Source: Naegleria gruberi (taxonomy: Eukaryota). Taken from it: 64,000 nt of DNA. Under the pieces are notes generated by a model. That model was not told the origin of the DNA. It saw only the letters and a list, made by a program, of their open reading frames with translations, and did not search any database. Position 1 is the stretch's first letter. Every line of letters starts with the position of its first letter. The DNA is taken from the NCBI GenBank assembly GCA_000004985.1, contig GG738890.1. One strand, given 5' to 3'. Shown piece after piece: positions 1 to 57,797 of the stretch. A program made the position numbers and the translations under genes.

Positions 1-2
1 TT

Positions 3-962
3 CGAGAATTCGAATTTCCTGGTTGTTCAAGTGCATGGCAAGTTATTCAAACAATGAGAGAAATCAGTATTCTCTCTTCAATAGGTGAAAAAACCTTCAG
101 AACCTACAACAGGATTTATGGTGGTTTTCTTTGGTTTATCAATGTGTTCGATCTTACCATTGATAATCCTTTAGCTATTGAATATTACATCTCTTACCTT
201 CTGGTTAATGTTCAAGGTTACAAAGCAAATACTGTGCAAGCAGCTATTCAATTCTTTGCTAACCTTGATGGCAGAACAATTAATATTTCTGTCTCTTACC
301 CTAAAGTTAAAAAAGGTGTCCTTAAGCTTTATTCACTTTCGGATAAAGTTTCTCTTCAAAGAGATCCGATAACAATCAAACATTTGACTGATTATTTGAA
401 GTGCAAAGACAAAGTGGATAATTTCACTTTCCGTCTTACTTCTGCTATTCTAGTAATTGGTTTTAGGCTATTTGCAAGACCTGGTGAGGTTGCGCGACTA
501 AAATGGTCATATATCAAGATGCTTAAAAAAGGAAGAATCAAGATTGATCTCAGTGGTCATAAAACTGACTTCTTCCTTATTGAAAAACCAATTACTATCG
601 AAAGGAATACTAAAGATCCTAATCTTTGCCCAATTTCAATACTAAAATCATACATGGATTTGGTTAGGAATTTCAAAGATGCTGAGTCCCCATTATTTTC
701 CTTCGAAAACGACAAATTCTTTGATTCAGATGGTATTTCAAAGATACTAAAGAATGCAGTGGGTATAGTAGATCAAGGCGTAACAGTCTCAGGTCACAGC
801 CTTAGAATAGGTGCTATCACAGAAGGACTCAGAAAGGGTATGTCTACAACTGATCTAATGGTCGGTGCAAGACATAAAAAGGAAAAAAGTTTATTTCCTT
901 ACCTTAGATCTGAAGGCCTAGCTGGCAAGAATTTCACTAACACTCTATTTTCTCTGGACTAA
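3..962 (+). CDS. Tyrosine recombinase (phage-integrase fold), 5'-truncated by the window edge; probable YR of a DIRS-like/Ngaro-PAT-like retroelement
   Basis: Frame is open from nt 3 with no upstream stop. Box I is ARPGEVARLKW (R...E), box II is GHSLRIGAIT (HxxR), followed by GARH and then Y nine residues later (HKKEKSLFPY), matching the R-H-R-H-Y catalytic spacing. No overlapping long ORF, so the YR appears to be the terminal gene. Confidence 0.7.
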   Translation, partial: REFEFPGCSSAWQVIQTMREISILSSIGEKTFRTYNRIYGGFLWFINVFDLTIDNPLAIEYYISYLLVNVQGYKANTVQAAIQFFANLDGRTINISVSYPKVKKGVLKLYSLSDKVSLQRDPITIKHLTDYLKCKDKVDNFTFRLTSAILVIGFRLFARPGEVARLKWSYIKMLKKGRIKIDLSGHKTDFFLIEKPITIERNTKDPNLCPISILKSYMDLVRNFKDAESPLFSFENDKFFDSDGISKILKNAVGIVDQGVTVSGHSLRIGAITEGLRKGMSTTDLMVGARHKKEKSLFPYLRSEGLAGKNFTNTLFSLD

Positions 963-1011
963 CCCATTGGTTTATCAACGAAATTCTTTATTGTTTTATT
1001 TGGAGAAATAT
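963..1011. repeat. 49-bp direct repeat copy 1 (B1-like), starting immediately after the YR stop codon
   Basis: cccattggtttatcaacgaaattctttattgttttatttggagaaatat is identical to 1637..1685. Confidence 0.85.
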
Positions 1012-1636
1012 GGCTAGTTGCGAGGAACGATGCAACGTTAGTATTTCGACAAATTGTAAACAATAAAATTGAGTTGATAAATAATTTTTATGCTCAAAAA
1101 AATTAAGAAACATGGTAAACACACCAAGCAAAATCATTGCTGACCCACCCACCCATTCCCTTAATTTCATCAAGAATTCCTTGAATTCTTTCAAATAGTC
1201 CTTCACTCCTTGAGTGTTTTTTCCTATTTGTCTTTTAGTTTGATCTTGGTAAGTGATCCTTCTAAGGATGCAGGATTAGTATTACCTTGTGATACAATAA
1301 TTTTTATTTCTAACTAACATCATTTGAATAATTCGAAATATGCTCGTAAAGTAAGCCAGATTTATTTTTTCAAAAAATATTTCTGATAGAAATTACCAGG
1401 CATTTTTTTTCAAGCAATTCACTAGTTAAAATAGAGAACTTTAATGGATTGGAGTTTTTACCGATTTTTCCTGCAATGCAGGTTTTTTATAGGGGAGTTG
1501 TTCTACTTCAATCTCGATTTTGTAAACAACTTTATTAACTCGGGACAATGCTGAATAAAGTCAATGACCTAAAAGGCAGCATTTCCGAGCAACATACCTC
1601 ATCCTTTGGATGAAGAATATGTTGAGTGAGCTTCTA

Positions 1637-1685
1637 CCCATTGGTTTATCAACGAAATTCTTTATTGTTTTATTTGGAGAAATAT
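1637..1685. repeat. 49-bp direct repeat copy 2 (B2-like), 674 bp downstream of copy 1
   Basis: Perfect 49/49 identity with 963..1011. It contains the stop codon of the minus-strand T/N-rich gene. Confidence 0.85.
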
Positions 1686-2901
1686 ATTAATAATATTACT
1701 TTCCCTTGTACTTTTTAATAATGATATAATGATCTTATTATTATTCACATCAAAATTTTTAATTAGGTGTTTAGTATGATTATTATTAATTACATTTTTA
1801 ATATTAATTAATAAATTATCATGATTAACTTGTTGAATAATTAATTCTTGAATTATTTTATCTATTTTATCTAGTACTATGTTATTATTTGGAGTAATTG
1901 ATGAAGTAATAATAGTATTTCCAGATTGTTGAATATTGTTGGAAGATTCAATTGTAGAATTATTAATAGTACTGATTGGTATCGTTAAATTAATTGCAGA
2001 TTCTATTGTTGTTGTAGTAGTGTTTGTAGGTTCTATTGTTGTTGTTATTAAATTATTTGATGTTGTATTTGTAGGTTCTATTGTTGTAATTGATGTAATT
2101 ATTGAATCTGTTGTTGTACTTGTTAAATTATTAATATTTATAGTGTTTGTAGGTTCTATTATTGTATTTGTAGATTTAGTAGTTGTTGTTAAATTATTTG
2201 ATGTAGTGTTTGTTATTGGAGTACTTATTAAATTATTTGTAGGTTCTATTGTTGTTGAATTATTTATAGTATTTGTAGATTGTATTGTTGTACTTTTTGT
2301 AGGTTCTATTGGTTTTGAATGTCTTATTATTCTCTAAATTATGTTAATGAAATATAATTAATAAAACAAACCCGTTTTTTTGTTGTTGTTAAATTAGTAT
2401 GTTCTATTGTTGGTGTGGTTGTTATTAAATTATTTGATGTAGTGTTTGTTGGGTCTATTGTTGTTGTTAATTTAATTGTTGAATCTGTTGTTGTTGTTGT
2501 TAAAGTATTTGATGTAGCATTATTCGTAGGTTCTGTTGTTTTTAGTTTTTTGTGTCGCTTTGATGTTGTTAAATTATATTATATTTAAAATTAAAACAAA
2601 CCCGTTTCTTATTATCACTATTATCATCACCATTATTCTTATCATCATCATCATTATTATCATCATCATCTTGTTCAACCTTTCTTTTACCAAACATCTT
2701 CTCCTCTATCGTAGTAGGAGGAAACAAAAAATGTTCACCATAAATAAAATTATCATTTGTTAAATCAATACATTCCATATTAACAAACTCTTTTATATTA
2801 TATGAATGTATAATGTGATCAACATGGATTCTAATAAATTTTGCTCCTTCGTGGATTTTTAGGTTTATGGATTTTGTTATTGGTGGACCTTGTATTCTCA
2901 T
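1662..2901 (-). CDS. Thr/Asn-rich repeat protein, 3 exons (2901..2602, 2557..2372, 2333..1662) with two very short introns (2558..2601 of 44 nt; 2334..2371 of 38 nt)
   Basis: Exon 1 starts at a true ATG in aaaaaaaaATG context. Both putative introns begin GTTTGTTTT right after the identical exon end AAACGG and end in AG. Splicing gives a stop-free frame of about 385 codons encoding TTIEPTNTTSNNL-type repeats. Unspliced, the ORF stops after 110 aa. Confidence 0.4.
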
Positions 2902-2977: not shown

Positions 2978-3661
2978 TCATAAACGTTCTTTCCAAACTT
3001 TCTTTCCTTTAGCTAACTGTTCATTAACTAATTGCAATTCAAACACAATATAATCAAACTCTATTCTGATCTTGTGAGTTTCTTGCAAATAAACCAATTT
3101 TAAATTCACTACCATTGACCTCCACTTCTTCTTTTTATGTTCCCATTTATACAACCACCAATATCTATTATCCTCAAGAATAGGAAGAAAGGAATTTGGA
3201 GCATCATTAATCCATTCTAAAGTAGTTCTATCAGCTTTTCTGCTACTTCCAGCCTCAAGTCCTCTATCAAAAATCCGATAATTGTCTTTGCTTTTACTTC
3301 CGTGAAATGATAAATCCATTTTCATACATAAAGCTTTCCATTCTATTTCATCACAACTAATTGTATTGTAGGTGTTAACAAATCTAGATATAGAACGTTT
3401 AGCATCTGGCACCATTCTTCTTCTGATAATATCCACAATCTCAGCCTCCATTACCATCACACGCTTCAAATAATAATCAGCATCAAAAATAAAAAAACTT
3501 TTTCGTTTTCCAATTAAATTATCGTCCAATCCTTCATTAAAATCACCAAAGAGATCCAAATAATCATCTAAACTCCCATCATCTGCTTTTTCGACAGTAG
3601 CAGCAAGCTTTTGTTCAACTTCTTCCAACACAGCCCTCTTCGAGACTTTTTTTTTGATCAT
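2978..3661 (-). CDS. Hypothetical acidic/basic protein, 227 aa
   Basis: Clean ATG ORF with A/T-rich codon usage and no recognisable domain. Confidence 0.55.
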   Translation of the reverse strand: MIKKKVSKRAVLEEVEQKLAATVEKADDGSLDDYLDLFGDFNEGLDDNLIGKRKSFFIFDADYYLKRVMVMEAEIVDIIRRRMVPDAKRSISRFVNTYNTISCDEIEWKALCMKMDLSFHGSKSKDNYRIFDRGLEAGSSRKADRTTLEWINDAPNSFLPILEDNRYWWLYKWEHKKKKWRSMVVNLKLVYLQETHKIRIEFDYIVFELQLVNEQLAKGKKVWKERL

Positions 3662-4991: not shown

Positions 4992-6131
4992 ATGTCGAAA
5001 GAACTTGTGGAAATGATAGATGAGTTGAATTCGTCCCTCAAGTCTATGGATGAGGATTTTAGTGATGATTTTAATAAGAATAATAATAATAACAATAATA
5101 TGGAAATATATGATGATAGTACAACGTCGATACCAATTCATCACAATTCGAGTTTTTATTATGGAGAGGATGAAAAACACCCGAATACACTGTCTTATGA
5201 TTCTCATAAATTTAACAAGATTATATTCGAAGATTCGGAATATTTGTATAGAACAATTACAAGAGATGATTTACCAGCTCTTAAAAAGTTACAACAAGAA
5301 TTATTTCCAGTTCAATATAACAAACCTTTTTATTTGAAATTATTGGATAAAAGCAAGACGTATACATTGCTTTCATTTAGCAAGGAAAATAATGAATTGA
5401 TTGGAGTTTGTTCGACATCAATAACATTGGAGGAAAATACTGATGGTGGATTTTGGCAATTTCTATTTGGATATCCAGACAAGTACAATGTTTGTTATAT
5501 AATGACCTTGGGTGTAAAAAAGAAACACAGAAGAAAAGGTTTAGCCTCAAGAATGTTACAAATTCTGGAAGAAGTTGTGTCGGTTGATCCTTATTATTGT
5601 ACCAAATTAACTCTGCATTGTAAAGTCGATAATCAACATGCTTTATCATTTTACAATCAGAATTCCTTTACAGTAAAGGAAAGGATAGAGGGATATTACG
5701 ACTTTGGATCTCATTTCGAAGCTGCTTTCAAGTTGGATAAGGTTTTGTCAGCAAAGAGAAATGAAAGCTTTTCAGATTCAATCTCCTTCTCTGGATTACT
5801 AACATCTGAGAGTCATACATCACTAGGATCTCAACCAACATCAAACAGACAATCCACTAATGAATCACCCATTCGAAATAACTATAACACCAGTTCACTT
5901 GGCTGCTTGGCAGTGACATTTCAAATTTGTAAATTTTTTATTGAAACCTTTAAAGTGGTAGCAATAGAGTCTTATAATACCATGAATAATATTCTCTCCC
6001 CTTCACCTCCTTTAAATCCAAATTCATCATCTCCACAACTTTCCAATTCCACCTCAACCAATGCTCTTTCACCCATTGCAATTCCAAGACCTAGAATTGT
6101 TTTACAAATTCAAGAGAAGGATTGTGAATAA
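4992..6131 (+). CDS. GNAT-family N-acetyltransferase (NAA50/NAA60-like) with a poly-N tract and a Ser/Pro-rich tail
   Basis: Motif A is YIMTLGVKKKHRRKGLASRML (Q/RxxGxG/A). FPVQYNKPFY resembles N-alpha-acetyltransferases. Confidence 0.7.
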   Translation: MSKELVEMIDELNSSLKSMDEDFSDDFNKNNNNNNNMEIYDDSTTSIPIHHNSSFYYGEDEKHPNTLSYDSHKFNKIIFEDSEYLYRTITRDDLPALKKLQQELFPVQYNKPFYLKLLDKSKTYTLLSFSKENNELIGVCSTSITLEENTDGGFWQFLFGYPDKYNVCYIMTLGVKKKHRRKGLASRMLQILEEVVSVDPYYCTKLTLHCKVDNQHALSFYNQNSFTVKERIEGYYDFGSHFEAAFKLDKVLSAKRNESFSDSISFSGLLTSESHTSLGSQPTSNRQSTNESPIRNNYNTSSLGCLAVTFQICKFFIETFKVVAIESYNTMNNILSPSPPLNPNSSSPQLSNSTSTNALSPIAIPRPRIVLQIQEKDCE

Positions 6132-7178: not shown

Positions 7179-9595
7179 ATGTCATTACACAAAGAGAACA
7201 TTTTCTTAAATTTGAACCAATGTGCCATCAAATATTACAAACTCAAGAAATCAAATGATGAATTGAGAGGTGCCAATGTTGAATTTCCTACCATTGTCAT
7301 GACAACAATTTTCGTAAAGGGCATACAAGAGGAATTAACCATTGATGATTTAAAGAAAATACTATTGGCCGATATGGAATGTAAATGGAGACAAGTACAC
7401 GAAGGAGACTATTGTAAATTATTTATTTGTATTAAAAGTATGGATAATTCACAAATGAAGGATAGTTTTAGAACCGTGACCTGTCAGACATTGGAAAGAA
7501 TTGGAATTAATATTCATGATGATAATATTTATTTTATTGATGATAGAAATAGTTTATATTTGGAGTCGTTGGCTAATTATACATTTAAACGAATGATATC
7601 GAATCATCTTATACAGAATATTCCAACATTTGATATCAAAGTTGGTCAATTTGTAAAGAAGGAATTCCTAATTAAATTGACACTATACAAAGATTAAAGA
7701 AATATGATAATGATAGTAAATGTATATATATTGTGGCTAAAATTGGAGATTTTTATAAGGAATCAATATTTTCATGTAAATATGTTAGTATTAATGATGG
7801 TAATTATGGAATTTATGAAACGAATGAGGATGCTGAGTTGATTATTTGTGGTACAGACATGATACAAAATTTATCTTATCAAAATAGGACAAAAACAAGA
7901 GGTGAATTTACTTGTCTTGAGCAATTCAATAGTTCTGAATTGAAAGAAGCTAAAATTTCATGTTCAATTATACCTAATGAATTGACAATTAAGGGTGCCA
8001 ATATTTATAATACTATTCCTGTTTGTTTACCAGAAGACTATGAGTTCTATGTATATGACAAGAATAGTGAAAAGCCCTCAATTGATTCCTATTATTCATA
8101 TATTAACAGTGAATTAATTGATTCTGACTTTGAAAATAATCTTTTTCGTAATGATAACAGTCAATCCAATGTGACTATCCAGTTAGACGAAAGTATTAAT
8201 TGTAAATTATTGAAAACTAAGCTTTCAGAAAGAAGATTAGACTGTTACAATATTTCTGATAAGATTGCTTCCTTATTCACCAAGAGAGGCCTCGGATTTT
8301 ACTATGCATACGATGATTCAAACAAAATAGCTTTAGAAAATAGATGGTGTCTCGTTACTAACAAGCGATGGATAAAACAAATCAGTGAGAGAATGAAAAA
8401 CCAAACCATTATTGATTTGATCAACTCAGATTTAAGAGATATTATTCTTTCTCGTTCACAAGAATTTAACCCAGACGAATATGCCAAAAATTATATAATA
8501 TCCAGTACTTTTTTACTGTGTTTGCAATTCTTTAATGAGAGGGATATTGAAATTGATGAATTGACTGAGAAAGTTTGGGATTATATTTTGCAAAATAATA
8601 TTCACAATTGTGAATCGTCAATAAGTAGTAGATTCGAAGCTCTTCGCCTCAGAATCCAAACTCAAAAGAGTGTCATTTCAGTGGTGAGTCCTCCTGTAAT
8701 TGGGGCTAGATCAGTTTTCTTCTCCTCCTTCTTGAAAAAGATACCTGAATTTATAATTCACGATAGATTTTATGAATTCGACCTTGATTTCAAATTACGG
8801 CGTTTTCCTAACTATAATAACCTATTTTACCTCACTCAACATTTCCCAATTTTAGAGGAAACAATTTCTGATGGTATTGTTATGGCCATTAATTCTTCAT
8901 CAGTTAGTAATATATCTACAAGATACAAAATATACGAGTCAAATCTGATTTCGTTTTTCAAACAATCACATAATCTCAATAGAGAATCGCAAAGGGATTT
9001 ACCAATCAGAGAGTGTATTCTTGATGAATATCTAATTAGTCAAGCCATCAAAACCCTCCACACTTGCAAAAAACATAACCAATCTGAAAAAGCCGAATAC
9101 ATTACCAAAGCATTGCCTTTTATTCAAGGAGTATCAACTCAAATTGAAAAATTGAAAAAGACTTTACAACATGATTTTTCAAATAGTTGGAAAAAGTTTA
9201 TTGAAATAATGGTCATATCATTGTTCCCAGTAGCCCCAAAACTTTCCATCTATTTGTGGACTGAAGTGTTACAGAAACAAGATGAAATACGAATCAATCC
9301 TAATATGATTCTATATGACGATCTAGAATGTGAAGTTATTTCTACAAAATTTTCATTCCTATCAAGAATATTTAGAGATATTGAAAAAGTACTCAAGACT
9401 AATCGATTACCAAGTGAGGATAAGAGAATTTTAAAAATAATCATAAGCGGAAAATCTAATGATTTCAATGAGGAATTGTTCCTAAATGAACATTTAGATG
9501 TTATTCTACAAAAGTATAGAGAAAAGATAGCAAATGTTGTTGTGGAAATTTCAGAGGAATTATTTGCTAAAACAGCTCGCATAGTTTTGAAATAA
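7179..9595 (+). CDS. Hypothetical protein of about 780 aa, probably two exons with a short intron near 7653..7699
   Basis: Two long ORFs 35 nt apart in different frames. The second begins at GTG, not ATG, but its frame is open from 7676. A GTAAAG donor at 7653 and an AG at 7699 restore the frame. Confidence 0.45.
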
Positions 9596-9665: not shown

Positions 9666-9738
9666 GGGGACTTGGCGCAGTCGGTAGCGCGTAGGTCTCA
9701 TAATCCTAAGGTCGTGAGTTCGATCCTCACAGTCCCCA
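9666..9738 (+). tRNA. tRNA-Met (anticodon CAT), elongator type
   Basis: Cloverleaf: acceptor GGGGACT/AGTCCCC, D-arm GCGC-AGTCGGTA-GCGC, anticodon loop CTCATAA, T-arm GTGAG-TTCGATC-CTCAC, 73 nt. Confidence 0.9.
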
Positions 9739-12241: not shown

Positions 12242-12937
12242 TTATTGTCTGAATATCACAGATTCTTCGGTGAATCTATCAATGACAGCCAAACTTTCCA
12301 ATTTCACACCTTGTTCTCTCAATTTCTTTCCTCCCTCTTGGAAACCCTTCTCAATTGAAATACCAACACCAACAATGGAAGCTCCTGCCTGATGAATGAT
12401 ATCAATTAGTCCTTGTGTGGCCTGTCCACAAGCAAGGAAATCATCAATAATCAAAACCTTATCATTTGATTGTAAATATTTGGCAGAGACACAAACATCG
12501 TATTCAACATTCTTTGTAAAGGAATGCACTTTGGTGGCATAGATTTGTTCTGTGAGGGTTGATGGTTTGACTTTTCTTGCATAAACGAGAGGAACGTTGA
12601 GGTAGAGAGCTGCCATTAATGCAATTGGAATTCCAGAAGTTTCCAATGTCAAAACTTTAGTGACACCATCAAGAATGAAACGAGAGGCAATGTCCATTCC
12701 CATTAATCTTGACAATTCTGGATCAATTTGATGATTGAGGAATGAATCGACCTTCAAAATATTTGTTCCTTTAATTACACGACCATGTTGAAGAATCATT
12801 TGTTTGAGAGTTGATTCACCACATCCTTTTGACTTGATGAGTGAGTCTACTAAATTCATTGAATTATCAGTAGTAGTAGTTGATGCAGTATGGAAGTGAT
12901 TAGCACAATGATTAGTATTAGAGAAGGAGAGCATCAT
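12242..12937 (-). CDS. xpt: Xanthine phosphoribosyltransferase, bacterial Xpt type, with an N-terminal extension of about 27 aa
   Basis: LKVDSFLNHQIDP, VLIIDDFLACGQA and AGASIVGVGI(S)IEK are near-identical to Bacillus-type Xpt over the whole length. Confidence 0.8.
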   Translation of the reverse strand: MMLSFSNTNHCANHFHTASTTTTDNSMNLVDSLIKSKGCGESTLKQMILQHGRVIKGTNILKVDSFLNHQIDPELSRLMGMDIASRFILDGVTKVLTLETSGIPIALMAALYLNVPLVYARKVKPSTLTEQIYATKVHSFTKNVEYDVCVSAKYLQSNDKVLIIDDFLACGQATQGLIDIIHQAGASIVGVGISIEKGFQEGGKKLREQGVKLESLAVIDRFTEESVIFRQ

Positions 12938-16562: not shown

Positions 16563-17234
16563 CACCAAGACCCTATCGACACTTTCAACCAAGTAATATT
16601 TCCAATAATTAAAAACAAACCAATTTCATTATTTTCAGATTACTTAGCAGAGAGAAAGGCATCCGAATCCAAAGTGATTGTCATACTGGATCAAACAAAA
16701 TCCGATGTAAGAATACAGAAAATCTTTACACATCTTTCAAGAGAGAAGGTAGCCAATACAAATTACAAACACTTTCTTTTGAATTTACTAATGCAGGATT
16801 CTTATGGTTGGAATATCGAATGGGAACTAGTTCCAAGAGAGTATCTAGCAGACAAATACTTTATCAAAAAGGTTGTTTCGTTTGGTGCATCGAGTATTAA
16901 ACAAATATTCTGCAAAATACTTAACCATATTCCAAGTAAATTTTGGGAAGATCAGAAATTCATCATTCAATTGTTGACAATTAGTGAAGGACATTGCTTT
17001 TGTTACTTTCCAAAACATGTGCAGAATACTCATAAATTTGCTGAAATGGCAATTCGTTTTCGAACAGCAAATATGGAAGAAACACCTTGTAAAAATAATG
17101 AAGAATTTGTTAGAGAGATGGTAAAACAAAATATCAAAACACTCCCTTACATTGGTAAGAAGTTATTGTTTGATCAGCAGTTTATGGTTTCTCTCATGTT
17201 GGAATTGAATATTAAGAATCCAGATTTTTTTTAA
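16563..17234 (+). CDS. Hypothetical protein; 5' end unresolved
   Basis: The frame is open from 16563 and the track start is GTG. A possible upstream exon (ATG 16481, MARKHKKKQQSNKRKNN, followed by GTAAGC) is phase-incompatible with the ttttcag acceptor at 16638. Confidence 0.35.
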   Translation, partial: HQDPIDTFNQVIFPIIKNKPISLFSDYLAERKASESKVIVILDQTKSDVRIQKIFTHLSREKVANTNYKHFLLNLLMQDSYGWNIEWELVPREYLADKYFIKKVVSFGASSIKQIFCKILNHIPSKFWEDQKFIIQLLTISEGHCFCYFPKHVQNTHKFAEMAIRFRTANMEETPCKNNEEFVREMVKQNIKTLPYIGKKLLFDQQFMVSLMLELNIKNPDFF

Positions 17235-25894: not shown

Positions 25895-27274
25895 ATGGAC
25901 ATTGTCTCGCAATACAAGCAGAAAACTACTGCTTCCATCAAATCGAAAAAGACACAAACATTATCTCAATATTCGAAACGTTCATTTATGCATGTCGAAT
26001 GTTGTGGAAAGATGGTCTTTAATTGTACAAGAATAATGTCTGTTCTTGCACTGATACTATTAATTATTGCATTTATTGTTGTAATTATTTACTCAATTAT
26101 GACGTATGCAGTTGTCAAGTGGCCTTTATCGACGGCTCTTATTGAAATTGGAAATTGTTATCATTATTACAATGAAATGATAATGACAGAGTATATTACA
26201 GTGTTTTCAATGAATGGAACTTATGCGAAAGAATACGAAACTGCAAAGAACTCACTCATTACTTCTCTCAATGTTGTCTTCTCTATTATTTCAAGTGCCA
26301 AGTTGACCAATTTGACCAATGCCAACGATATTCCAATATTCAAATTACAACAAGGTGTAGTCGATGCAATAGTTGCGAAAGATTATACCACTGCCAATGA
26401 ACTATTCAATCAACCAGAACATTTAGAAGGGATGGACACATTCCTGAGCTCATATGTTAATTTTTTGCAAGATATTAAGAATATTAGTGCAAATCAGGAT
26501 CAGACGATTCAAAGTTCAACCTCCACACAGATTATTGTGATTGCTGTTTGTCTTGCATTGACCTTACCGATTGTGTTATTCATTATTATCACATCAATCA
26601 GATCTCAACAGCTGTCCGCAAGAAAACTCAAAAATACTAGATCAATAATGGTGCTCAAAACCATGACAGATCCAGTTTTGAGATCTCTTTTCAATGAATT
26701 CTGCGTTGGTGAGACTGAACATCATTGTTTTGAATTTTTGGAAAGTGTTCAACTATTTAAGGAAAAGAAGGGAACCTATCAATCGACCATTCGTCAAATC
26801 ATGAAACAAGTTAAGGAGGGAAATTTCATAGATGATGATACCAGCTCTTCAGATACCAATACAGCAGTCACCACACGAACAGATTCCACAGAATTTGGTT
26901 CTATAGTTTCACTCAATGATCAGGAGCAAGCACTTCAAATCTATGAGCGATTCTTAGCTCCAAACAGTTCCAAACGAATCCATTTCAAAGGTTATTCGGG
27001 AATTCTATCTGTAATTCAATCAAAAGAATTAGCTGCTGATTTACAACATGTATTTGTGGATGCTCAGAAATTTGCAAGTGAACATCTCATTCCAGCTCAC
27101 AATTCCTTCTTGGGGAGTTTCACCAACATTACCTCTCATAAAATTGAAATGATGAATGAATTTAGAAAGAAATGGTTACATTTCAAATCCACTGAAACTT
27201 CCAAAAAGAGAAAAGATCCAACCAAATTCCAGCAACAATCTTCTGGTCAAACTGATTCAAAATTGATTCAATAA
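25895..27274 (+). CDS. Two-TM RGS-domain protein, paralog 3, head-to-head with 24163..25557
   Basis: TM segments MSVLALILLIIAFIVVIIYSI and IIVIAVCLALTLPIVLFIIITSI. RGS: LRSLFNEFCVGETEHHCFEFLESVQLFKEK...IYERFL. Confidence 0.7.
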   Translation: MDIVSQYKQKTTASIKSKKTQTLSQYSKRSFMHVECCGKMVFNCTRIMSVLALILLIIAFIVVIIYSIMTYAVVKWPLSTALIEIGNCYHYYNEMIMTEYITVFSMNGTYAKEYETAKNSLITSLNVVFSIISSAKLTNLTNANDIPIFKLQQGVVDAIVAKDYTTANELFNQPEHLEGMDTFLSSYVNFLQDIKNISANQDQTIQSSTSTQIIVIAVCLALTLPIVLFIIITSIRSQQLSARKLKNTRSIMVLKTMTDPVLRSLFNEFCVGETEHHCFEFLESVQLFKEKKGTYQSTIRQIMKQVKEGNFIDDDTSSSDTNTAVTTRTDSTEFGSIVSLNDQEQALQIYERFLAPNSSKRIHFKGYSGILSVIQSKELAADLQHVFVDAQKFASEHLIPAHNSFLGSFTNITSHKIEMMNEFRKKWLHFKSTETSKKRKDPTKFQQQSSGQTDSKLIQ

Positions 27275-31310: not shown

Positions 31311-31401
31311 TGATGAGTGTGGGATTTGAACCCACGCCCTTGCGGAACACGGTATTAATCATACCTTAACGTGTCGTCTTAGACCACTCGACCAACTCAC
31401 C
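31311..31401 (-). tRNA. tRNA-Leu (anticodon AAG), type II with long variable arm, containing an 11-nt intron 3' of the anticodon
   Basis: Acceptor GGTGAGT/ACTCATC, D-arm GTC-GAGTGGTCTAA-GAC, anticodon stem ACACG/CGTGT, loop TTAAGG[tatgattaata]C, variable arm TCCGCAAGGGC, T-arm GTGGG-TTCAAAT-CCCAC. Confidence 0.8.
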
Positions 31402-34727: not shown

Positions 34728-36938
34728 ATGTTTGGAAGTTCTGGTTTTAATGCCGGTGGTGGCAATCCTCAAGGAAATGCTCCTGGAGCCTTTTCATTTG
34801 GTAATAATAACTCTGCTCCAACACAACCAGCTACTGGTGGTGGTGGTGGATTTTCTTTTGGATCATCTACAACTGGAGGTACACAACCATCAACAACTGG
34901 AGGATTCGGACAACCTTCTGCACAACCACCAACTTCTGGAGGATTTGCTTTTGGATCATCTACAACTGGAGGTACACAACCATCTACAACTGGAGGATTT
35001 GGTTTTGGTTCAACACCTTCTACCCAACCAACAACTGGAGGAACAACTGCTGGAGGAACCACAGGTGGATTTGCTTTTGGAAATAAGCCAGCTACCACTG
35101 CAACTACAACACAACCAACCACTGGAGGAATGACTTTCGGTCAACCTTCTACACAACCAACAAGTACTGGAGGAACCACAGGAGGATTTGCTTTTGGTAC
35201 TCAGCCAACAACTGGAACAACTACACAACCAACAACTGGAACCACTGGTGGATTTAACTTTGGCTCTACTACACAACCTTCCACACAACCTACTATCAGC
35301 ACAACAACCACTACACAACCATCTAGTGGAGGATTCAATTTTGGTTCCACAACTACTCAACCAACAACCACACAACCAACTACAGGAACAGCTACTGGGG
35401 GAACTACAGGTGGATTTAACTTTGGAAATACTACAACTGGAACAACTACACAACCTACTACAGGTACAACTACTGGATTCAAAATCGGAACTACTTCAAC
35501 AACTCAACCAACTACTGGAACCACTGGAGGAACCACTGGTGGATTTAACTTTGGAAATACTACAACCCAACCATCAACTGGTACTACAACTACTAGCTCA
35601 ACAACTCAACCAACTACTGGTACCACGGGAGGATCTGGTGGATTTAACTTTGGTTCTACCACAACTACTCCATCAACAGTAGCCCAACCAACTACTACAG
35701 GTACAACTGGAGGAACCACAGGAGGATTTAACTTTGGAAATCAACCAAAACCTGTCACAACACAACCATCAACAACTGGTACTACAACACAACCAACCAC
35801 TACTACTACTGGTACAACAGGAGGAGGTGGAGGATTCAATTTCGGTTCTACTGCTACTACCACTACCCCATCAACCACCAACGCTCCAACTAGTACAGGA
35901 ACAACAGGAGGTGCTGGAGGATTCAACTTTGGAAATAAGCCAACAACAACTCCAACTACTACAACCACTACAGGTACAACAGGAACTACCAATGCAGGCT
36001 TCTCATTTGATAATAAGAGACCATCCGATGAGGGAGGTCCAAATAAGAAGAGATCAGCTGGTTCTGACATTTCCACATCAGGAAATACTACAACTACAGG
36101 CACTACTGGAGGTGGATTCACATTAAACACTGGATCAACAACAACTCCATCCTCTACTCAACCAACAACAGGTACCACAGGAGCTGGAGGTTTCAACTTT
36201 ACAGCTGGATCTGATACAAGCAAAAAGCCAACATTACCATCTTTGGATACAACAAATTCTACTACCACTGCTACTACCGGAGCTACTACAACAGCTCAAC
36301 CAACCACAGCTACCACAACTCAACCAAAACCTATTACTACCACAACTCCTCAAATAGATACATCACAAACTCTTTTAGGAAATAGTACTGTCGAAGAAAT
36401 AATTAACAAATGGAATACAGATCTTTCCACTGATATCAAAGATTTCCACAAAGCAGCTAACCTTGTTTCAAAGTGGGATAAGGATATTATGGAAAATGAA
36501 TCTAAGCTTATTGGACTTAACGATCAAGTTAATAGAATTACAGCAGAACAAAGTGAATTGAAAGGACAATTAGACATGATAGACTCTCAACAAAATAATT
36601 TGGAAAATATCATCAAGGGATTAGAAGATTACATTGAAAAGAATCAATCAATATATGATTCTAGTAAGAGGTCACAATCAGACAGGGAGAGAGAAGAAAC
36701 ATACAAGACTGCCGAATCTATTAATTGCCAACTCGATGCCATGCAACAAACTTTAGATGAAATGGTCATGCAACTTAACAAGACCTTTGAACAATCTGTG
36801 GATCCACATTCTGACTTTACTCGTATTGTGCAAGTAATGAATAATCACTTGGCATGCTTACAATGGATTGAACAACAAGCATCTGGTCTTGACTCTGACA
36901 TTCAAACAAGTTCGAATACTTTGAAACGACTTCAATAA
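34728..36938 (+). CDS. FG-repeat nucleoporin, Nup62/Nsp1 family
   Basis: About 20 GFNFG/GFAFG/FSFG repeats in Thr/Gln/Pro-rich spacers. The C-terminal coiled-coil (IINKWNTDLSTDIKDFHKAANLVSKWDKDIMENESKL...) matches the Nsp1_C domain. Confidence 0.8.
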   Translation: MFGSSGFNAGGGNPQGNAPGAFSFGNNNSAPTQPATGGGGGFSFGSSTTGGTQPSTTGGFGQPSAQPPTSGGFAFGSSTTGGTQPSTTGGFGFGSTPSTQPTTGGTTAGGTTGGFAFGNKPATTATTTQPTTGGMTFGQPSTQPTSTGGTTGGFAFGTQPTTGTTTQPTTGTTGGFNFGSTTQPSTQPTISTTTTTQPSSGGFNFGSTTTQPTTTQPTTGTATGGTTGGFNFGNTTTGTTTQPTTGTTTGFKIGTTSTTQPTTGTTGGTTGGFNFGNTTTQPSTGTTTTSSTTQPTTGTTGGSGGFNFGSTTTTPSTVAQPTTTGTTGGTTGGFNFGNQPKPVTTQPSTTGTTTQPTTTTTGTTGGGGGFNFGSTATTTTPSTTNAPTSTGTTGGAGGFNFGNKPTTTPTTTTTTGTTGTTNAGFSFDNKRPSDEGGPNKKRSAGSDISTSGNTTTTGTTGGGFTLNTGSTTTPSSTQPTTGTTGAGGFNFTAGSDTSKKPTLPSLDTTNSTTTATTGATTTAQPTTATTTQPKPITTTTPQIDTSQTLLGNSTVEEIINKWNTDLSTDIKDFHKAANLVSKWDKDIMENESKLIGLNDQVNRITAEQSELKGQLDMIDSQQNNLENIIKGLEDYIEKNQSIYDSSKRSQSDREREETYKTAESINCQLDAMQQTLDEMVMQLNKTFEQSVDPHSDFTRIVQVMNNHLACLQWIEQQASGLDSDIQTSSNTLKRLQ

Positions 36939-37201: not shown

Positions 37202-38878
37202 ATGTCCCAACAACCACAACTCCCATCATCCTACGAGGATAATAACATTGCTACTTCAACTTCTAATGATAAAGTTACGAATTTAGAATTGACTCATGAA
37301 AAGATTATCATTATTGATTTCGGATCACAATATACACAACTCATTGGTCGTAAAGTTCGTGAATTGAATGTTTATTGTGAGATTTATCCATACGATAAAT
37401 TCAATGAAAATACATTGAAGGTGAGTAGTGGTGGTGAGAATGCAGAACAAGATGGATGGTCATTTGTGAGAGGTGTTATTCTATCTGGATCTCATCATTC
37501 AGTTCATGATGAACATTCACCACGTGTCAATGAACAAGTTTGGAATGAAATTCATAAGAGACAAATTCCAATTCTTGGTATTTGTTTTGGTGCTCAAATG
37601 TTAGCTCACTTGTATGGAGAACAAGTTGTTTCAAGTGTTATTAGAGAATATGGACGTGCTCATATTCAATTGACCTCAAATAATGAAGATACAATTCTTA
37701 GTCAATTGAGTGGTGATTCACAAGTTTGGATGTCGCATGGTGATTCAATTCTTATTAAGGAAGAAGGTTCTCAATTGGAAATTATTGCAAAATCTGATAG
37801 TATTCCAGTTGCTGCTTTCAAAGTTAAGGGAAAGAAGATTTTTGGTGTTCAATTCCATCCAGAGGTTCATCACTCACATTGTGGAAAGTTGATTCTCTCC
37901 AATTTCTTGAAACTTGCTGGATGCTCTTGTACTTGGACTCCTTCTCATTTCATTGACGAAACTGTAAAGAATTTGAAACAAACTATTGGAGAAAGTGATC
38001 ACGTTGTTATGGCATTGAGTGGAGGTGTTGACAGTAGTGTTGCTGCCGTTCTCTTACAAAAGGCTATTGGAGACAGATTACATTGTATTTTTGTAGATAA
38101 TGGATTATTGAGATTGAATGAATTTGAACAAGTATTGGAAACTTATAGAGATAGTTTACATTTGAATGTTAAGGGAGTTGAAGTATCTACACTCTTCTAT
38201 GATGCATTGAAGGGAGAATCTGATCCAGAAAAGAAACGTAAAATTATTGGAGCCAAATTTATTGAAGTATTCGAAAAGGAAGCTCAACAAATTTCCAATG
38301 TCAAACACTTGGGTCAAGGAACTATTTATCCAGATGTTGTCGAGTCAATTGGTGGAGCAACTATCAAGAGTCACCACAATGTTGGTGGTCTTCCAGAAAA
38401 GATGCACATGAAAGTGGTTGAGCCATTGAGATTACTTTTCAAGGATGAAGTCAGAAGAGTTGGTAAGGAATTAGGAATTCCAGATAACATCTTACTTCGT
38501 CATCCATTCCCTGGTCCTGGACTTGGTATTAGAATTTTAGGCGATATCACTGCAGAGAAGGTTGAATTATTACAAAAGGTTGATGCCATCTATGTTAATT
38601 CATTGAAGGAAGAAGGATTGTATAATCAAATCTGGCAAGCTGGTGCTATCTTGTTGCCAATTCATTCGGTTGGTGTTCAAGGGGATGGCAGAACTTATGA
38701 GAAGGTTGTTGCTTTGAGAGCTGTTACTTCTGTTGATGGTATGACTGCAGATATTTTCCATTTCCCTTGGGAATTCCTTGGAAAGGTTTCGAATAAGATC
38801 ATTAATCAAGTTAAGGGTGTGAATAGAGTTGTCTATGATATTAGTACTAAACCACCTTCAACTATTGAATGGGAATAA
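37202..38878 (+). CDS. guaA: GMP synthase (glutamine-hydrolysing)
   Basis: GATase motifs [10 protein letters not shown] and [13 protein letters not shown]-PPase P-loop [13 protein letters not shown]-terminal dimerisation domain ending TIEWE. Confidence 0.9.
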
Positions 38879-38937: not shown

Positions 38938-40351
38938 TTATGCCTTAACCTTAAAGTTATAAACGTCACCATCTTGAGTAATATATTCTTTTCCTTCCTG
39001 TCTAATCAGATTCTTTCTCTTGGCCTTGGCATCGTCACAATCGCAATCCAAATAATCCTTCCAATTAATGGTTTCTGCCTTGATGAATCCCTTTTCAAAA
39101 TCACTGTGAATTACACCTGCTGATTCTTGAGCAGTACTTCCTTTAGTAACAGTCCAAGCTCTTGTTTCTTGCACACCAACAGTGTAATAAGTAATGAGAT
39201 CCAACAATTCATAAGATGATGTGATAATTCTCTCGAGACCAGTTTGTTTCAACCCATATTCATTCAAAAGTTCAGCTCTTGATTCTGGTTCACATTGAGC
39301 AACTTCAGATTCCAATTGAGCACAGACAATAACTGGTTCAACAGTATTTCCTCTCTTCTTAATATGTTCTATAAGTGCTTGTGTATGTGTGTTTCCTCCA
39401 TCAATAATTGTCTGTTCATCCACATTACAAATATATAAAATTTTCTTGGTTGTTAAAAAGTTAAATTGTTTCAAAATGGCTATTTCAGCAGCTGTCCATT
39501 TAACTGTATAAAGTGAATTTTCCTCAATCAATGTTTCATGACACTTTTTCAATAAATCCATCTTATCCTTTGATGCTTGAATTTCCTTTCTCTTCATATT
39601 TCTTTCAACAACATCCAAATCACTGAGCATTAATTCTGATTCAATAATTTGAACATCTCTCACTGGATCAACACTATTTTCGACGTGTGTAATATTCACA
39701 TCTTCGAAACATCTCACCATTTGTGCAATACAGTTCACTCCTCTAATGTGACTCAAAAATTTGTTACCCAATCCCTTTCCTTCAGCTGCTCCTTTAATTA
39801 AACCTGCAATATCAATCACTTCAATGTAAGTTGGAACAATTTTCTTGGTTTTTGCCCTTTCAGCAAGTAATTCCAATCTTTCATCTGGAACTGTACAGAC
39901 ACCAACGTTTGGTTCAATAGTACAGAATGGGAAATTGGCTGCTTCTGCCTTTGTTGATTCAGTCAGTGCTGTTATTTAATTCGTATATAAAAAGTTTCAA
40001 ATAAATTTCATCAATTTCAATTATTTCACACAAGAATTTCAACAATTTTTATCATAATTGTTAGAGAAATTCAGAAGATTAAAACAACATACCATTAAAA
40101 AGTGTAGATTTACCAACATTTGGCATTCCGACAATTCCAACACTTCTCTTTGCACTACTTCTAGTCGAATGTGATTGAACGGAAGAATTCAACATGACGA
40201 ATTGTTGATTAAATTTAGAAGCAAATGTTGAATTGGCAAAAATTGATGCCGGTGTTGATGAACATTGTGTATTTCGGGTAATGACGGAATGAACACCCAA
40301 TAAACGTTGTTGGAAAACGTTGGTGGTGGAAAAGCGAGAAAGTTTTTGCAT
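38938..40351 (-). CDS. Obg-like ATPase OLA1/YchF, 2 exons (40351..40093 and 39968..38938; intron 39969..40092 of 124 nt, GTATGT...AACAG), with an N-terminal presequence-like extension
   Basis: Exon 1 carries VGIVGMPNVGKSTLFN (G1). Exon 2 reads ANFPFCTIEPNVGV...VIDIAGLIKGAAEGKGLGNKFLSHI and ends in a TGS domain (EGKEYITQDGDVYNFK). Confidence 0.8.
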
Positions 40352-43475: not shown

Positions 43476-43595
43476 GGCTACGGCCATATCACGATGAATG
43501 CACCTCATCCCGTCCGATTTGAGAAGTTAAGCATCGTCGAGCCACATCAGTACTGAGGTTGGAGACAACTTGGGAACCTGTGGTGCTGTAGTCTT
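43476..43595 (+). rRNA. 5S rRNA gene, copy 1
   Basis: GGCTACGGCCATATCAC...CCGTCCGATTTGAGAAGTTAAGCATCG...GTACTGAGGTTGGAGACAACTTGGGAACCTGTGGTGCTGTAGTC followed by TTTTT. Matches eukaryotic 5S helices I-V. 120 nt. Confidence 0.9.
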
Positions 43596-50034: not shown

Positions 50035-50160
50035 GGGGTCTTGGCGCAGTCGGTATTATTAATAGATTTTAGGGTAGGTAACGCTCTCAATCTACCTCAA
50101 CGTCGGTAGCGCGTAGGTCTCATAATCCTAAGGTCGTGAGTTCGATCCTCACAGACCCCA
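50035..50160 (+). tRNA. tRNA-Met(CAT) copy interrupted by a 53-nt insertion in the D-loop (50054..50106); probable pseudogene or non-canonical intron
   Basis: Apart from the insertion it is identical in arm structure to the copies at 9666 and 57622, and the acceptor GGGGTCT/AGACCCC equals copy 3. The insert is flanked by a duplicated GTCGG(TA) and contains a 5-6 bp hairpin (GGTAG...CTACC). Confidence 0.6.
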
Positions 50161-50320
50161 ACTTTTGCCCTTTCTTTTGCTTATTTTGCATCCTATCGAA
50201 CGATCATCACCATAGTTTGATCACCAATATCTTTACAAGCAAAGGGAGCAATTTCTAGCTGGTTTGTTTTGCTTGTGGTTAACGTTGATATTACAGTTGA
50301 GTAACAAACATAAAATAAAA

Positions 50321-56726: not shown

Positions 56727-56846
56727 GGCTACGGCCATATCACGATGAATGCACCTCATCCCGTCCGATTTGAGAAGTTAAGCATCGTCGAGCCACATCA
56801 GTACTGAGGTTGGAGACAACTTGGGAACCTGTGGTGCTGTAGTCTT
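56727..56846 (+). rRNA. 5S rRNA gene, copy 2
   Basis: Identical to 43476..43595 over 120 nt, followed by TTTT. Confidence 0.9.
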
Positions 56847-57019: not shown

Positions 57020-57087
57020 CATTTTGCCATTCTTCACTCTAGAACAAACAGAATAAAAACAATGTTCCTTATGCAATTCTGAAAACC

Positions 57088-57274
57088 ATCTTTCTCGGCC
57101 AATTGGCTTTGATCGAGTGTAGTATCTGTTCTTTTCAGTTTAATAGCTGAAAGCAGCCCACGGGTTGCATTACTATTAACTCAATTTTTTGTAGGGATCA
57201 GGGTTTGAGCTTGATTGCTCACTTTGATTGGTTTCAATCAGACATTGCACAAACCGTCAGATTAGGAGCCACCC
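57088..57274 (+). ncRNA. U2 spliceosomal snRNA
   Basis: AUCUUUCUCGGCCAAUUGGCUUUGAUCGAGUGUAGUAUCUGUUCUUUUCAGUUUAAUAGCUGA... aligns to metazoan U2 (AUCGCUUCUCGGCCUUUUGGCUAAGAUCAAGUGUAGUAUCUGUUCUUAUCAGUUUAAUAUCUGA), including the branch-point-pairing GUAGUA. Sm site AAUUUUUUGUAGG. 3' end ...GGAGCCACCC. 187 nt. Confidence 0.85.
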
Positions 57275-57621
57275 AACTCTTTTAATTAATTGAAAAATCA
57301 TTGAACAAAGACAATCTCAATCAGAGTAAAATTGAGCTTTTTACAAATTCCGAGCATGTATGATGACGAAGATATAGTAAGCATGCTGAGGGACTCAAAA
57401 CAGTCATTGATTGGTGTTGATATTGAACAATTTCTTGTCGACATTTGAATGCAGTTGGCAAGTGCGAAAAGGAAAATGAGAAGTGGAACGATTTCAAGAA
57501 TGAATTATTTGATTAATTGAAAGTAGAAACAATTAGGAAATTGATGTTGTTTTTTGTTCTCCTTCATAACATAACTATTGGGATTAGCAACACTTAAAAG
57601 CTATTGAGAGGATGCAAAAGT

Positions 57622-57694
57622 TGGGGTCTGTGAGGATCGAACTCACGACCTTAGGATTATGAGACCTACGCGCTACCGACTGCGCCAAGACCCC
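57622..57694 (-). tRNA. tRNA-Met (anticodon CAT), elongator type
   Basis: Reverse complement gives GGGGTCT-TG-GCGC-AGTCGGTA-GCGC-G-TAGGT-CTCATAA-TCCTA-AGGTC-GTGAG-TTCGATC-CTCAC-AGACCCC-A. Confidence 0.9.
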
Positions 57695-57797
57695 GACACA
57701 TTATAAACCTTTTACAGTTTCTTCATTAACCTTAACTGAGTTCCTAGGTTTACCTAATAGGAACAGTTTTCTTTTGTTCATATTCAATTCGAAAAAA

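Follow-up and report, generated by a model that had tools for sequence, protein, structure and literature searches.

The window analyzed here is a stretch of 64,000 nucleotides (nt) from Naegleria gruberi (GenBank assembly GCA_000004985.1, contig GG738890.1). Near its left end, a Thr/Asn-rich open reading frame (ORF) runs on the minus strand from position 2901 down to position 1662, with the start codon ATG at 2901-2899 and the stop codon inside a repeat of a neighboring retrotransposon. The frame changes twice along the way, in each case at a short GT...AG segment, and it is continuous only if both segments are taken out. The candidate gene is made up of the following parts, listed in the direction of reading.

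2602..2901, minus strand: exon 1, 300 nt, 100 codons from ATG 2901-2899, with the 3' end AAG AAA CGG.
2592..2607, minus strand: 16-nt block across the donor of intron 1, AAACGGGTTTGTTTTA.
2558..2601, minus strand: proposed intron 1, 44 nt, phase 0, starting with GTTTGTTTT, with TTAAC inside and AAAG at the end (full sequence GTTTGTTTTAATTTTAAATATAATATAATTTAACAACATCAAAG).
2372..2557, minus strand: exon 2, 186 nt or 62 codons, phase 0-0, T/N-rich, with the 3' end AAA AAA CGG.
2362..2377, minus strand: 16-nt block across the donor of intron 2, AAACGGGTTTGTTTTA, identical to 2592-2607.
2334..2371, minus strand: proposed intron 2, 38 nt, phase 0, starting with GTTTGTTTTA, with TTAAC inside and TTTAG at the end (full sequence GTTTGTTTTATTAATTATATTTCATTAACATAATTTAG).
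1662..2333, minus strand: exon 3, 223 codons followed by the stop TAA at 1664-1662.

Translation after both excisions yields a product of 385 amino acids (aa) without an internal stop. Read unspliced, exon 1 continues to a TAA at 2571-2569, giving an ORF of 110 aa; another in-frame TAA lies 9 nt upstream of the ATG. As there is no Met among the 285 codons of exons 2 and 3, these exons could be translated only if joined to the ATG of exon 1. Both proposed introns have GTTTGTTTT at the 5' end, AAACGG immediately before it, AG at the 3' end, and boundaries that fall between codons. A preliminary description of this DNA had put forward the same two phase 0 segments, a product of about 385 codons after their removal, and an unspliced ORF of 110 codons, and its coordinates and arithmetic proved correct in silico. 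The AAACGG donor context that it reported at both junctions is part of a longer, 16-nt identical block, and the retroelement repeat in which it placed the end of the ORF is the 50-nt repeat of an element of the DIRS order. Its figure of roughly 85% AT was too high for the coding parts, as the exons measure 72-79% AT (GC content 0.28 in exon 1, 0.285 in exon 2, and 0.21 in exon 3).

The start codon has an A-rich context, TTTAAAAAAAAATG, found also at a second ATG of the window, near 40350. The product begins with MRIQGPPITKSINLKIHEGAKF and contains a non-repetitive N-terminal part of about 77 aa, followed by a D/N-rich acidic tract at the end of exon 1. Exon 3 encodes degenerate (T)IEPTN(TT)SNNL(I)TTT repeats (at ~2333-1990) and, after them, a non-repetitive, I/N/K-rich, probably helical tail. 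The larger tandem-repeat periods in 1990-2540 are 21, 45, 36, 78, 9, and 3, all of them multiples of 3. Inspection of the translation, with no dedicated predictor run, revealed no hydrophobic stretch at the N-terminus or elsewhere, which agrees with the earlier portrayal of a low-complexity T/N/I/E/P protein without an N-terminal signal. Most likely, the product is a Thr/Asn-rich repeat protein that is disordered over much of its length and has a small N-terminal domain of unique sequence. It resembles the Thr/Ser/Asn-rich mucin-like proteins of protists in its degenerate T-rich repeats, its many N-x-T/S sequons, and the lack of a detectable domain; unlike them, it shows on inspection neither a signal peptide nor a transmembrane segment and is therefore not evidently secreted, and it has no homologues.

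The features of the proposed introns have to be judged against those of Naegleria. The preliminary description had used dictyostelids for this purpose; however, the ORFs at 54-962, 2978-3661, 4992-6131, 7179-7697, 12242-12937, 25895-27274, and 37202-38878, together with others, encode exact Naegleria gruberi NEG-M proteins, all of which map to a single scaffold of 350,200 nt. Three introns of the window were validated by homology and by spliced models identical to the annotated proteins.

Cathepsin B-like gene, XP_002673546 (NAEGRDRAFT_71406): two introns, one of 99 nt (GTAAGT...TAG) and one of 49 nt (GTGAGT...TAG).
Obg-like ATPase gene, XP_002673540: one intron of 124 nt (GTATGT...CAG).

The 49-nt intron lies 50 kb from the locus. 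A de novo survey of the window through its ORF junctions was too noisy to yield a donor consensus, and these three introns are the ones validated. Two-exon models at 7179/7733 and for a leucine-rich repeat gene at 57774 were discarded, the parts being separate single-exon genes, and a 429-aa two-exon model of YchF corresponded to no protein on record. The mean intron length in N. gruberi is 203 bp, and a minimum intron of 30 bp was set for N. fowleri 'based on an assessment of predicted genes' (PMC8296547). The proposed introns had been described as unusual for dictyostelids. By the standard of Naegleria they are short and their donor is off-consensus, but next to a local intron of 49 nt and the 30-bp minimum set for N. 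fowleri they are not extraordinary: a length of 38-44 nt and a GTTTGT donor are atypical in Naegleria, and modestly so.

The two segments resemble short U2-type introns of Naegleria (e.g., the 49-nt intron of NAEGRDRAFT_71406) in their GT...AG ends, their T- or AT-rich interior, a YTRAY-like motif near the 3' end, the switch in composition between exon and intron, and the restoration of the ORF upon their removal. The T fraction is 0.43 in intron 1 and 0.55 in intron 2, compared with 0.16 and 0.28 in the A-rich exons 2 and 3, respectively; in the three validated introns it is 0.43-0.54. The candidate introns are two of the three T-richest 30-nt windows in the locus. TTAAC is located at 2568-2572 in intron 1 and at 2343-2347 in intron 2, placing the presumptive branch A 11 nt and 10 nt from the 3' end, respectively. 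Both segments thus contain a motif of the YTRAY type, which is short enough to occur by chance in AT-rich DNA. The window also carries the gene of the RNA that recognizes the branch site.

57086-57276, plus strand: U2 small nuclear RNA gene (Rfam RF00004, 120.6 bits, full-length), containing GUGUAGUAUCUGUU with the canonical GUAGUA branch-recognition box.

Owing to this GUAGUA box, an ordinary YTRAY branch site is expected in N. gruberi. The candidate donor CGG/GTTTGT agrees with the local donors (three reference introns) at positions +1, +2, +5, and +6 and at three exonic positions, and not at +3 and +4. Under the general rules of U1 pairing, CGG/GU..GU would form seven of nine base pairs, three of them exonic. 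The exonic CGG pairs could compensate for the T residues at +3 and +4. The last codon of both exon 1 and exon 2 is CGG, which is seldom used for Arg in this DNA: among the 409 Arg codons of 20 long ORFs in the window, it occurs 9 times. The window contains no further candidate for a GTTTGT donor.

How far such an arrangement could arise by chance was assessed in several ways. For the open length, 2000 dinucleotide-preserving shuffles were generated per exon, and those reaching the observed stop-free length were counted. No shuffle was as long as exon 1 (100 stop-free codons) or exon 3, and a single one matched the 108 non-repetitive codons at the C-terminus. The proposed GT-AG pair is the only one that preserves the ORF at junction 2. 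At junction 1, the proposed pair is one of six, and because the other five also keep the frame, intron 1 is less certain than intron 2. For the excisions, each segment was exchanged for shuffles of itself, and any GT-AG excision of at most 150 nt was accepted, provided that no more than 15 codons were lost per side. The ORF could be restored in 48/3000 and 43/3000 shuffled inserts for the two segments (1.4-1.6%); since the segments share an origin, these results count as approximately one event of p~0.015 rather than two. Codon log-odds trained on the same 20 long ORFs are above zero in frame and below zero out of frame in each of the three exons (e.g., +0.35 against -0.47 and -1.64 in exon 1, and +0.12 against -0.73 and -0.59 in exon 2).

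The origin of the two introns is suggested by comparison of the two junction regions. Their longest identical run is the 16-nt donor block, and elsewhere they are about 49% identical, which is near background for their composition. The probability of an identical run of 17 nt is approximately 5e-4, and that of a 16-nt run somewhat higher. The donor block, AAACGGGTTTGTTTT, occurs exactly twice in the 64 kb; when up to two mismatches are allowed there are three matches against 0.33 expected, the third being at 16612, away from any ORF junction. The exon starts that follow the introns appear related as well, both being K/R-rich and leading to EPT (RHKKLKTTEPT and RIIRHSKPIEPT). Together with the 186-nt phase 0-0 exon, these features support a tandem duplication of an exon+intron unit. 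The resulting 230-nt unit (186-nt exon plus 44-nt intron), arranged head to tail, would be comparable to tandem exon or exon+intron duplications in repeat proteins, from which it differs in that the copies have diverged to about background identity outside the donor block. For this reason, either the duplication is old, as the divergence suggests, or the case for it is weaker than the preliminary description implied: its claim that the unit was duplicated whole draws on the donor block, the exon starts, and the 0-0 phase, and not on overall similarity. Identity confined to the donor block is what would be expected if the splice site were under selection. A third, weak copy of this donor-like motif, ACCGGCATGTTTTATTAAT, is found a short distance upstream of ATG 2901, at 2925-2943, and may be a chance occurrence.

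At its 3' end, the candidate gene runs into the neighboring element, of which the following parts lie in the window.

1..1144, plus strand: 3' part of a retrotransposon of the DIRS order, with the tyrosine-recombinase ORF, B1, and then 133 nt matching the element's 5' region.
54-962, plus strand: tyrosine-recombinase ORF, an exact match to XP_002673457, annotated as 'predicted protein' NAEGRDRAFT_71380.
962-1011, plus strand: B1, first copy of a 50-nt direct repeat, directly after the tyrosine-recombinase ORF.
1636..1685, plus strand: B2, second copy of the 50-nt direct repeat, 50/50 identical to B1.

The identity of the element became apparent from a 4107-nt metagenome contig (L001), reached through a 907-aa cluster-mate of the tyrosine-recombinase ORF. 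The ends of the contig overlap by the assembler's k-mer, which implies a circular unit of ~3.98 kb, and the 50-nt repeat B closes the circle. The contig is 99.4-100% identical to positions 1-1144 of the window, and the tyrosine-recombinase ORFs of the two match at 300/302 residues. Its genes are arranged in the order of a gag-like ORF1, a reverse transcriptase (RT) with a Dam-like methyltransferase, and a tyrosine recombinase in an overlapping frame. Pfam assigns RVT_1 with 4.3e-26 and Dam with 1.1e-4 (below Pfam's cut-off), and the Phage_integrase matches are weak (0.012 and 0.0088). A Crypton-type DNA transposon, suggested by the RT-less 907-aa ORF, was rejected because the overlapping frame shows RVT_1. 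On its gene content and order, the element is classified as a DIRS-order retrotransposon: with PAT-like and DIRS1-like elements it has in common the gag-like ORF1, the RT with a Dam-like methyltransferase, the overlapping 3' tyrosine-recombinase ORF, and also the direct 50-nt repeat and the circular assembly. It differs from them in a 491-nt stretch before B2. DIRS-like sequences have been listed in N. gruberi and left unclassified (Piednoel et al. 2011, PMC3266345); the circular unit would allow those elements to be placed in the PAT/DIRS1-like group.

The A-like 133 nt after B1 correspond to sequence from the 5' region of the element and take in the first 11 codons of its ORF1. They are separated from B2 by the 491 nt at 1145-1635, which have no match in the circular unit or in the rest of the window and contain no long ORF; the element's 5' end lies outside the window. 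Because these 491 nt, absent from the circular unit, precede B2, the terminus is not a textbook B1-A2-B2 split direct repeat. B2 supplies the last eight codons of the Thr/Asn-rich ORF (NIFLQIKQ) and its TAA. Since the frame remains open until it enters the repeat and ends after 24 nt of it, the present stop seems to be borrowed and the gene is most likely truncated at the 3' end, a conclusion that the preliminary description had not reached. The DIRS-order element, whose other flank is outside the window, is most likely responsible for the truncation, and the gene may no longer be functional.

Taken together, these features favor, with a probability of about 0.6, an unannotated, lineage-specific gene of three exons with two very short U2-type introns that arose through exon+intron duplication; the gene would end in transposon sequence and is possibly non-functional. 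Before translation, its mRNA would have to lose two U2-type GT-AG introns of 44 and 38 nt; in each, the GTTTGT donor is off-consensus and directly preceded by a strong exonic CGG, and the putative branch site, TTAAC, lies 10-11 nt from the acceptor. Both introns and the exon between them would derive from tandem duplication of a phase-0/phase-0 exon+intron unit within the repeat region, after which the splice-donor block alone would have stayed identical. The 50-nt repeat of the neighboring DIRS-order element would then provide the present stop, leaving the gene cut short at its 3' end. The geometry and statistics of the ORF, the intron-like composition and signals, the lack of an annotated gene, and the identities of the organism and of the element are shown directly; from these we infer removal of the segments by the spliceosome, expression in the past or at present, and truncation through insertion of the element.

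Several observations weigh against such a gene. The JGI/NCBI annotation contains no gene between NAEGRDRAFT_71380 (54-962) and NAEGRDRAFT_71381 (2978-3661), and the records of these two flanking genes, D2VQX5 and D2VQX6, have consecutive accessions. No relative of exon 1, of the C-terminus, or of the whole product was found in three very large protein collections. The validated Naegleria introns are 49-124 nt long and combine GTRNGT donors with YAG acceptors, whereas the candidates are 38 and 44 nt long, have T at +3 and +4 where all three validated introns have a purine at +3, include one AAG acceptor, and are unannotated. Exon 2 by itself is weak in the shuffling test (58/2000 shuffles are as long), and the common origin of the two introns reduces them to roughly one observation. 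On the opposite strand, the antisense (+) ORF at 1936-2337 has a codon log-odds of +0.38, as high as that of the sense strand. Finally, the end of the ORF in transposon sequence points to a damaged gene.

A collection of 15 billion proteins contains neither the 110-aa ORF nor a protein identical to the 385-aa product, and no word-sharing candidate for exon 1 turned up in the protein collections, part of which stems from assembled public sequencing runs. Metagenomes were scanned twice, with 24-mers taken from exon 1 and from the adjacent 227-aa gene, and gave no match; a Pfam scan of the product found no domain, and by tblastn neither the window nor the circular unit contains a paralogue. One borderline HMMER match (E = 9.6e-4, with 1.84 billion representatives scanned) is to an unrelated repetitive protein and was dismissed as spurious. 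The gene, if real, would on these searches be an orphan. As for the antisense ORF, it is open over 133 codons with a V/I/F-rich product. Because it scores as high as the sense strand and as real genes do, codon usage is a weak measure in this low-complexity DNA and was abandoned as a discriminator between the strands. Its openness is a warning that ORF and codon statistics are unreliable in DNA of this kind.

The most serious competitor, itself unlikely, is that the locus represents a non-functional relic or non-coding low-complexity DNA (a microsatellite-derived tract or a long-dead pseudogene), in which the frame changes are indels and the GT...AG ends coincidental. Most of the difficulties just listed would be natural in such DNA: the lack of an annotated gene and of any homologue, the short open length of exon 2, the antisense ORF, the off-consensus donor with its one AAG acceptor, and the proximity of transposon sequence; moreover, repeat periods in multiples of 3 keep a frame open for free. 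Against this reading, exon 1 and the C-terminal 108 codons are each significantly open. Indels would also have to account for segments that become 'spliceable' in about 1.5% of random inserts of the same composition, that form sharp T-rich islands with TTAAC at the right branch distance, and whose donor is the sole strongly conserved block between the junctions.

A very doubtful alternative is that the Thr/Asn-rich ORF, rather than being a host gene of its own, is one component of a larger unit, repeated or mobile, that also contains the gene directly upstream of it, possibly within one spliced transcript.

2978-3661, minus strand: 'predicted protein' of 227 aa, NAEGRDRAFT_71381, without a Pfam domain; further copies, NAEGRDRAFT_54236 and NAEGRDRAFT_62142, are on two other scaffolds.

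The 227-aa protein thus exists in three copies, ~98-99% identical, on three scaffolds, as expected of a repeated unit. Its stop is 77 nt from ATG 2901, and an in-frame GT-AG pair at 2985-2889 (donor GTTTAT, 97 nt) could fuse the two ORFs; however, frame-compatible GT-AG pairs between neighboring ORFs are common by chance, and the three annotated paralogues share their stop. Since no annotated protein carries the exon 1 sequence, the other copies either lack exon 1 or are equally unannotated.

It is very unlikely that an introner-like mini-intron, or another short mobile sequence, was inserted twice into a pre-existing ORF in place of an exon+intron duplication. The low identity of the junction regions (~49%) outside the 16-nt block AAACGGGTTTGTTTTA would fit this reading, as would the weak third copy of the motif upstream of the ATG. 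A proliferating introner-like family would have many near-identical copies in unrelated genes; in the 64 kb of the window two exact copies are found, both in the same gene, and the third match, at 16612, lies away from ORF junctions. By inspection, neither target-site duplications nor terminal inverted repeats surround the segments. In addition, related exon starts (R-x-K/R-rich...EPT) after both segments and a symmetric 0-0 exon of 186 nt are what a tandem exon duplication predicts. Two programmed -1 (+2) ribosomal frameshifts would agree with the shared direction of the frame changes, as the lengths of 44 and 38 nt are each 2 mod 3. The geometry of the frames effectively refutes them: the frame upstream of junction 2 ends at TAA 2343-2341 before the downstream frame opens past TAG 2336-2334, leaving no overlap, and the frames at junction 1 overlap by about two codons that hold no slippery heptamer.

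If the proposed introns of the three-exon gene are real, they would add one more gene to those missing from the 2010 annotation of N. gruberi and a case from the short, off-consensus extreme of its intron spectrum. They would be useful for retraining gene finders for Naegleria, including the pathogen N. fowleri. The locus would also be a small example of exon+intron duplication in a repeat protein and of a DIRS-type element providing a stop codon. Current understanding of splicing or of Naegleria biology would not change; what is concerned is a gap in the annotation. A broader conjecture, quite unlikely at present, is that N. gruberi holds a population of ultra-short (<45 nt) GTTTGT-type introns, in which exonic pairing compensates for the donor, and which gene finders skip when their training is based on longer introns and GTRNGT donors; if true, a set of low-complexity, lineage-specific genes would be missing from the reference annotation. 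In a bolder variant, the 16-nt donor block may mark a propagating mini-intron.

Among the other features of the window, two dispersed 5S ribosomal RNA genes are found on the plus strand at 43476-43594 and 56727-56845 (105.4 bits each). Both are included in a 159-nt direct repeat, the copies of which are 98% identical and 13.25 kb apart; the second 5S gene is ~240 nt upstream of the U2 gene. Transfer RNA (tRNA) genes for Met (CAT) are located at 9666-9738 (plus strand) and 57622-57694 (minus strand), and a partial copy (97-100% identical), called by neither ARAGORN nor Rfam, is present at 50102-50169 (plus strand). A 91-nt tRNA at 31311-31401 (minus strand), with no anticodon assigned, probably contains an intron. 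At 34728-36938 (plus strand), a long T/Q/P/G-rich ORF with FG/GGFNFG repeats is followed by a coiled-coil tail and resembles an FG-nucleoporin; as the exact 736-aa ORF is absent from the protein collection, the annotated model must differ. In the Obg-like ATPase XP_002673540 (354 aa; 38938-40350, minus strand), the annotated start, MPNVGK, falls inside the P-loop motif, so that the model looks truncated at the N-terminus. Upstream of this start the ORF stays open for 75 codons, as far as an ATG that has its TTTAAAAAAAAATG context in common with the start codon of the candidate gene; these additional codons may represent a targeting presequence.

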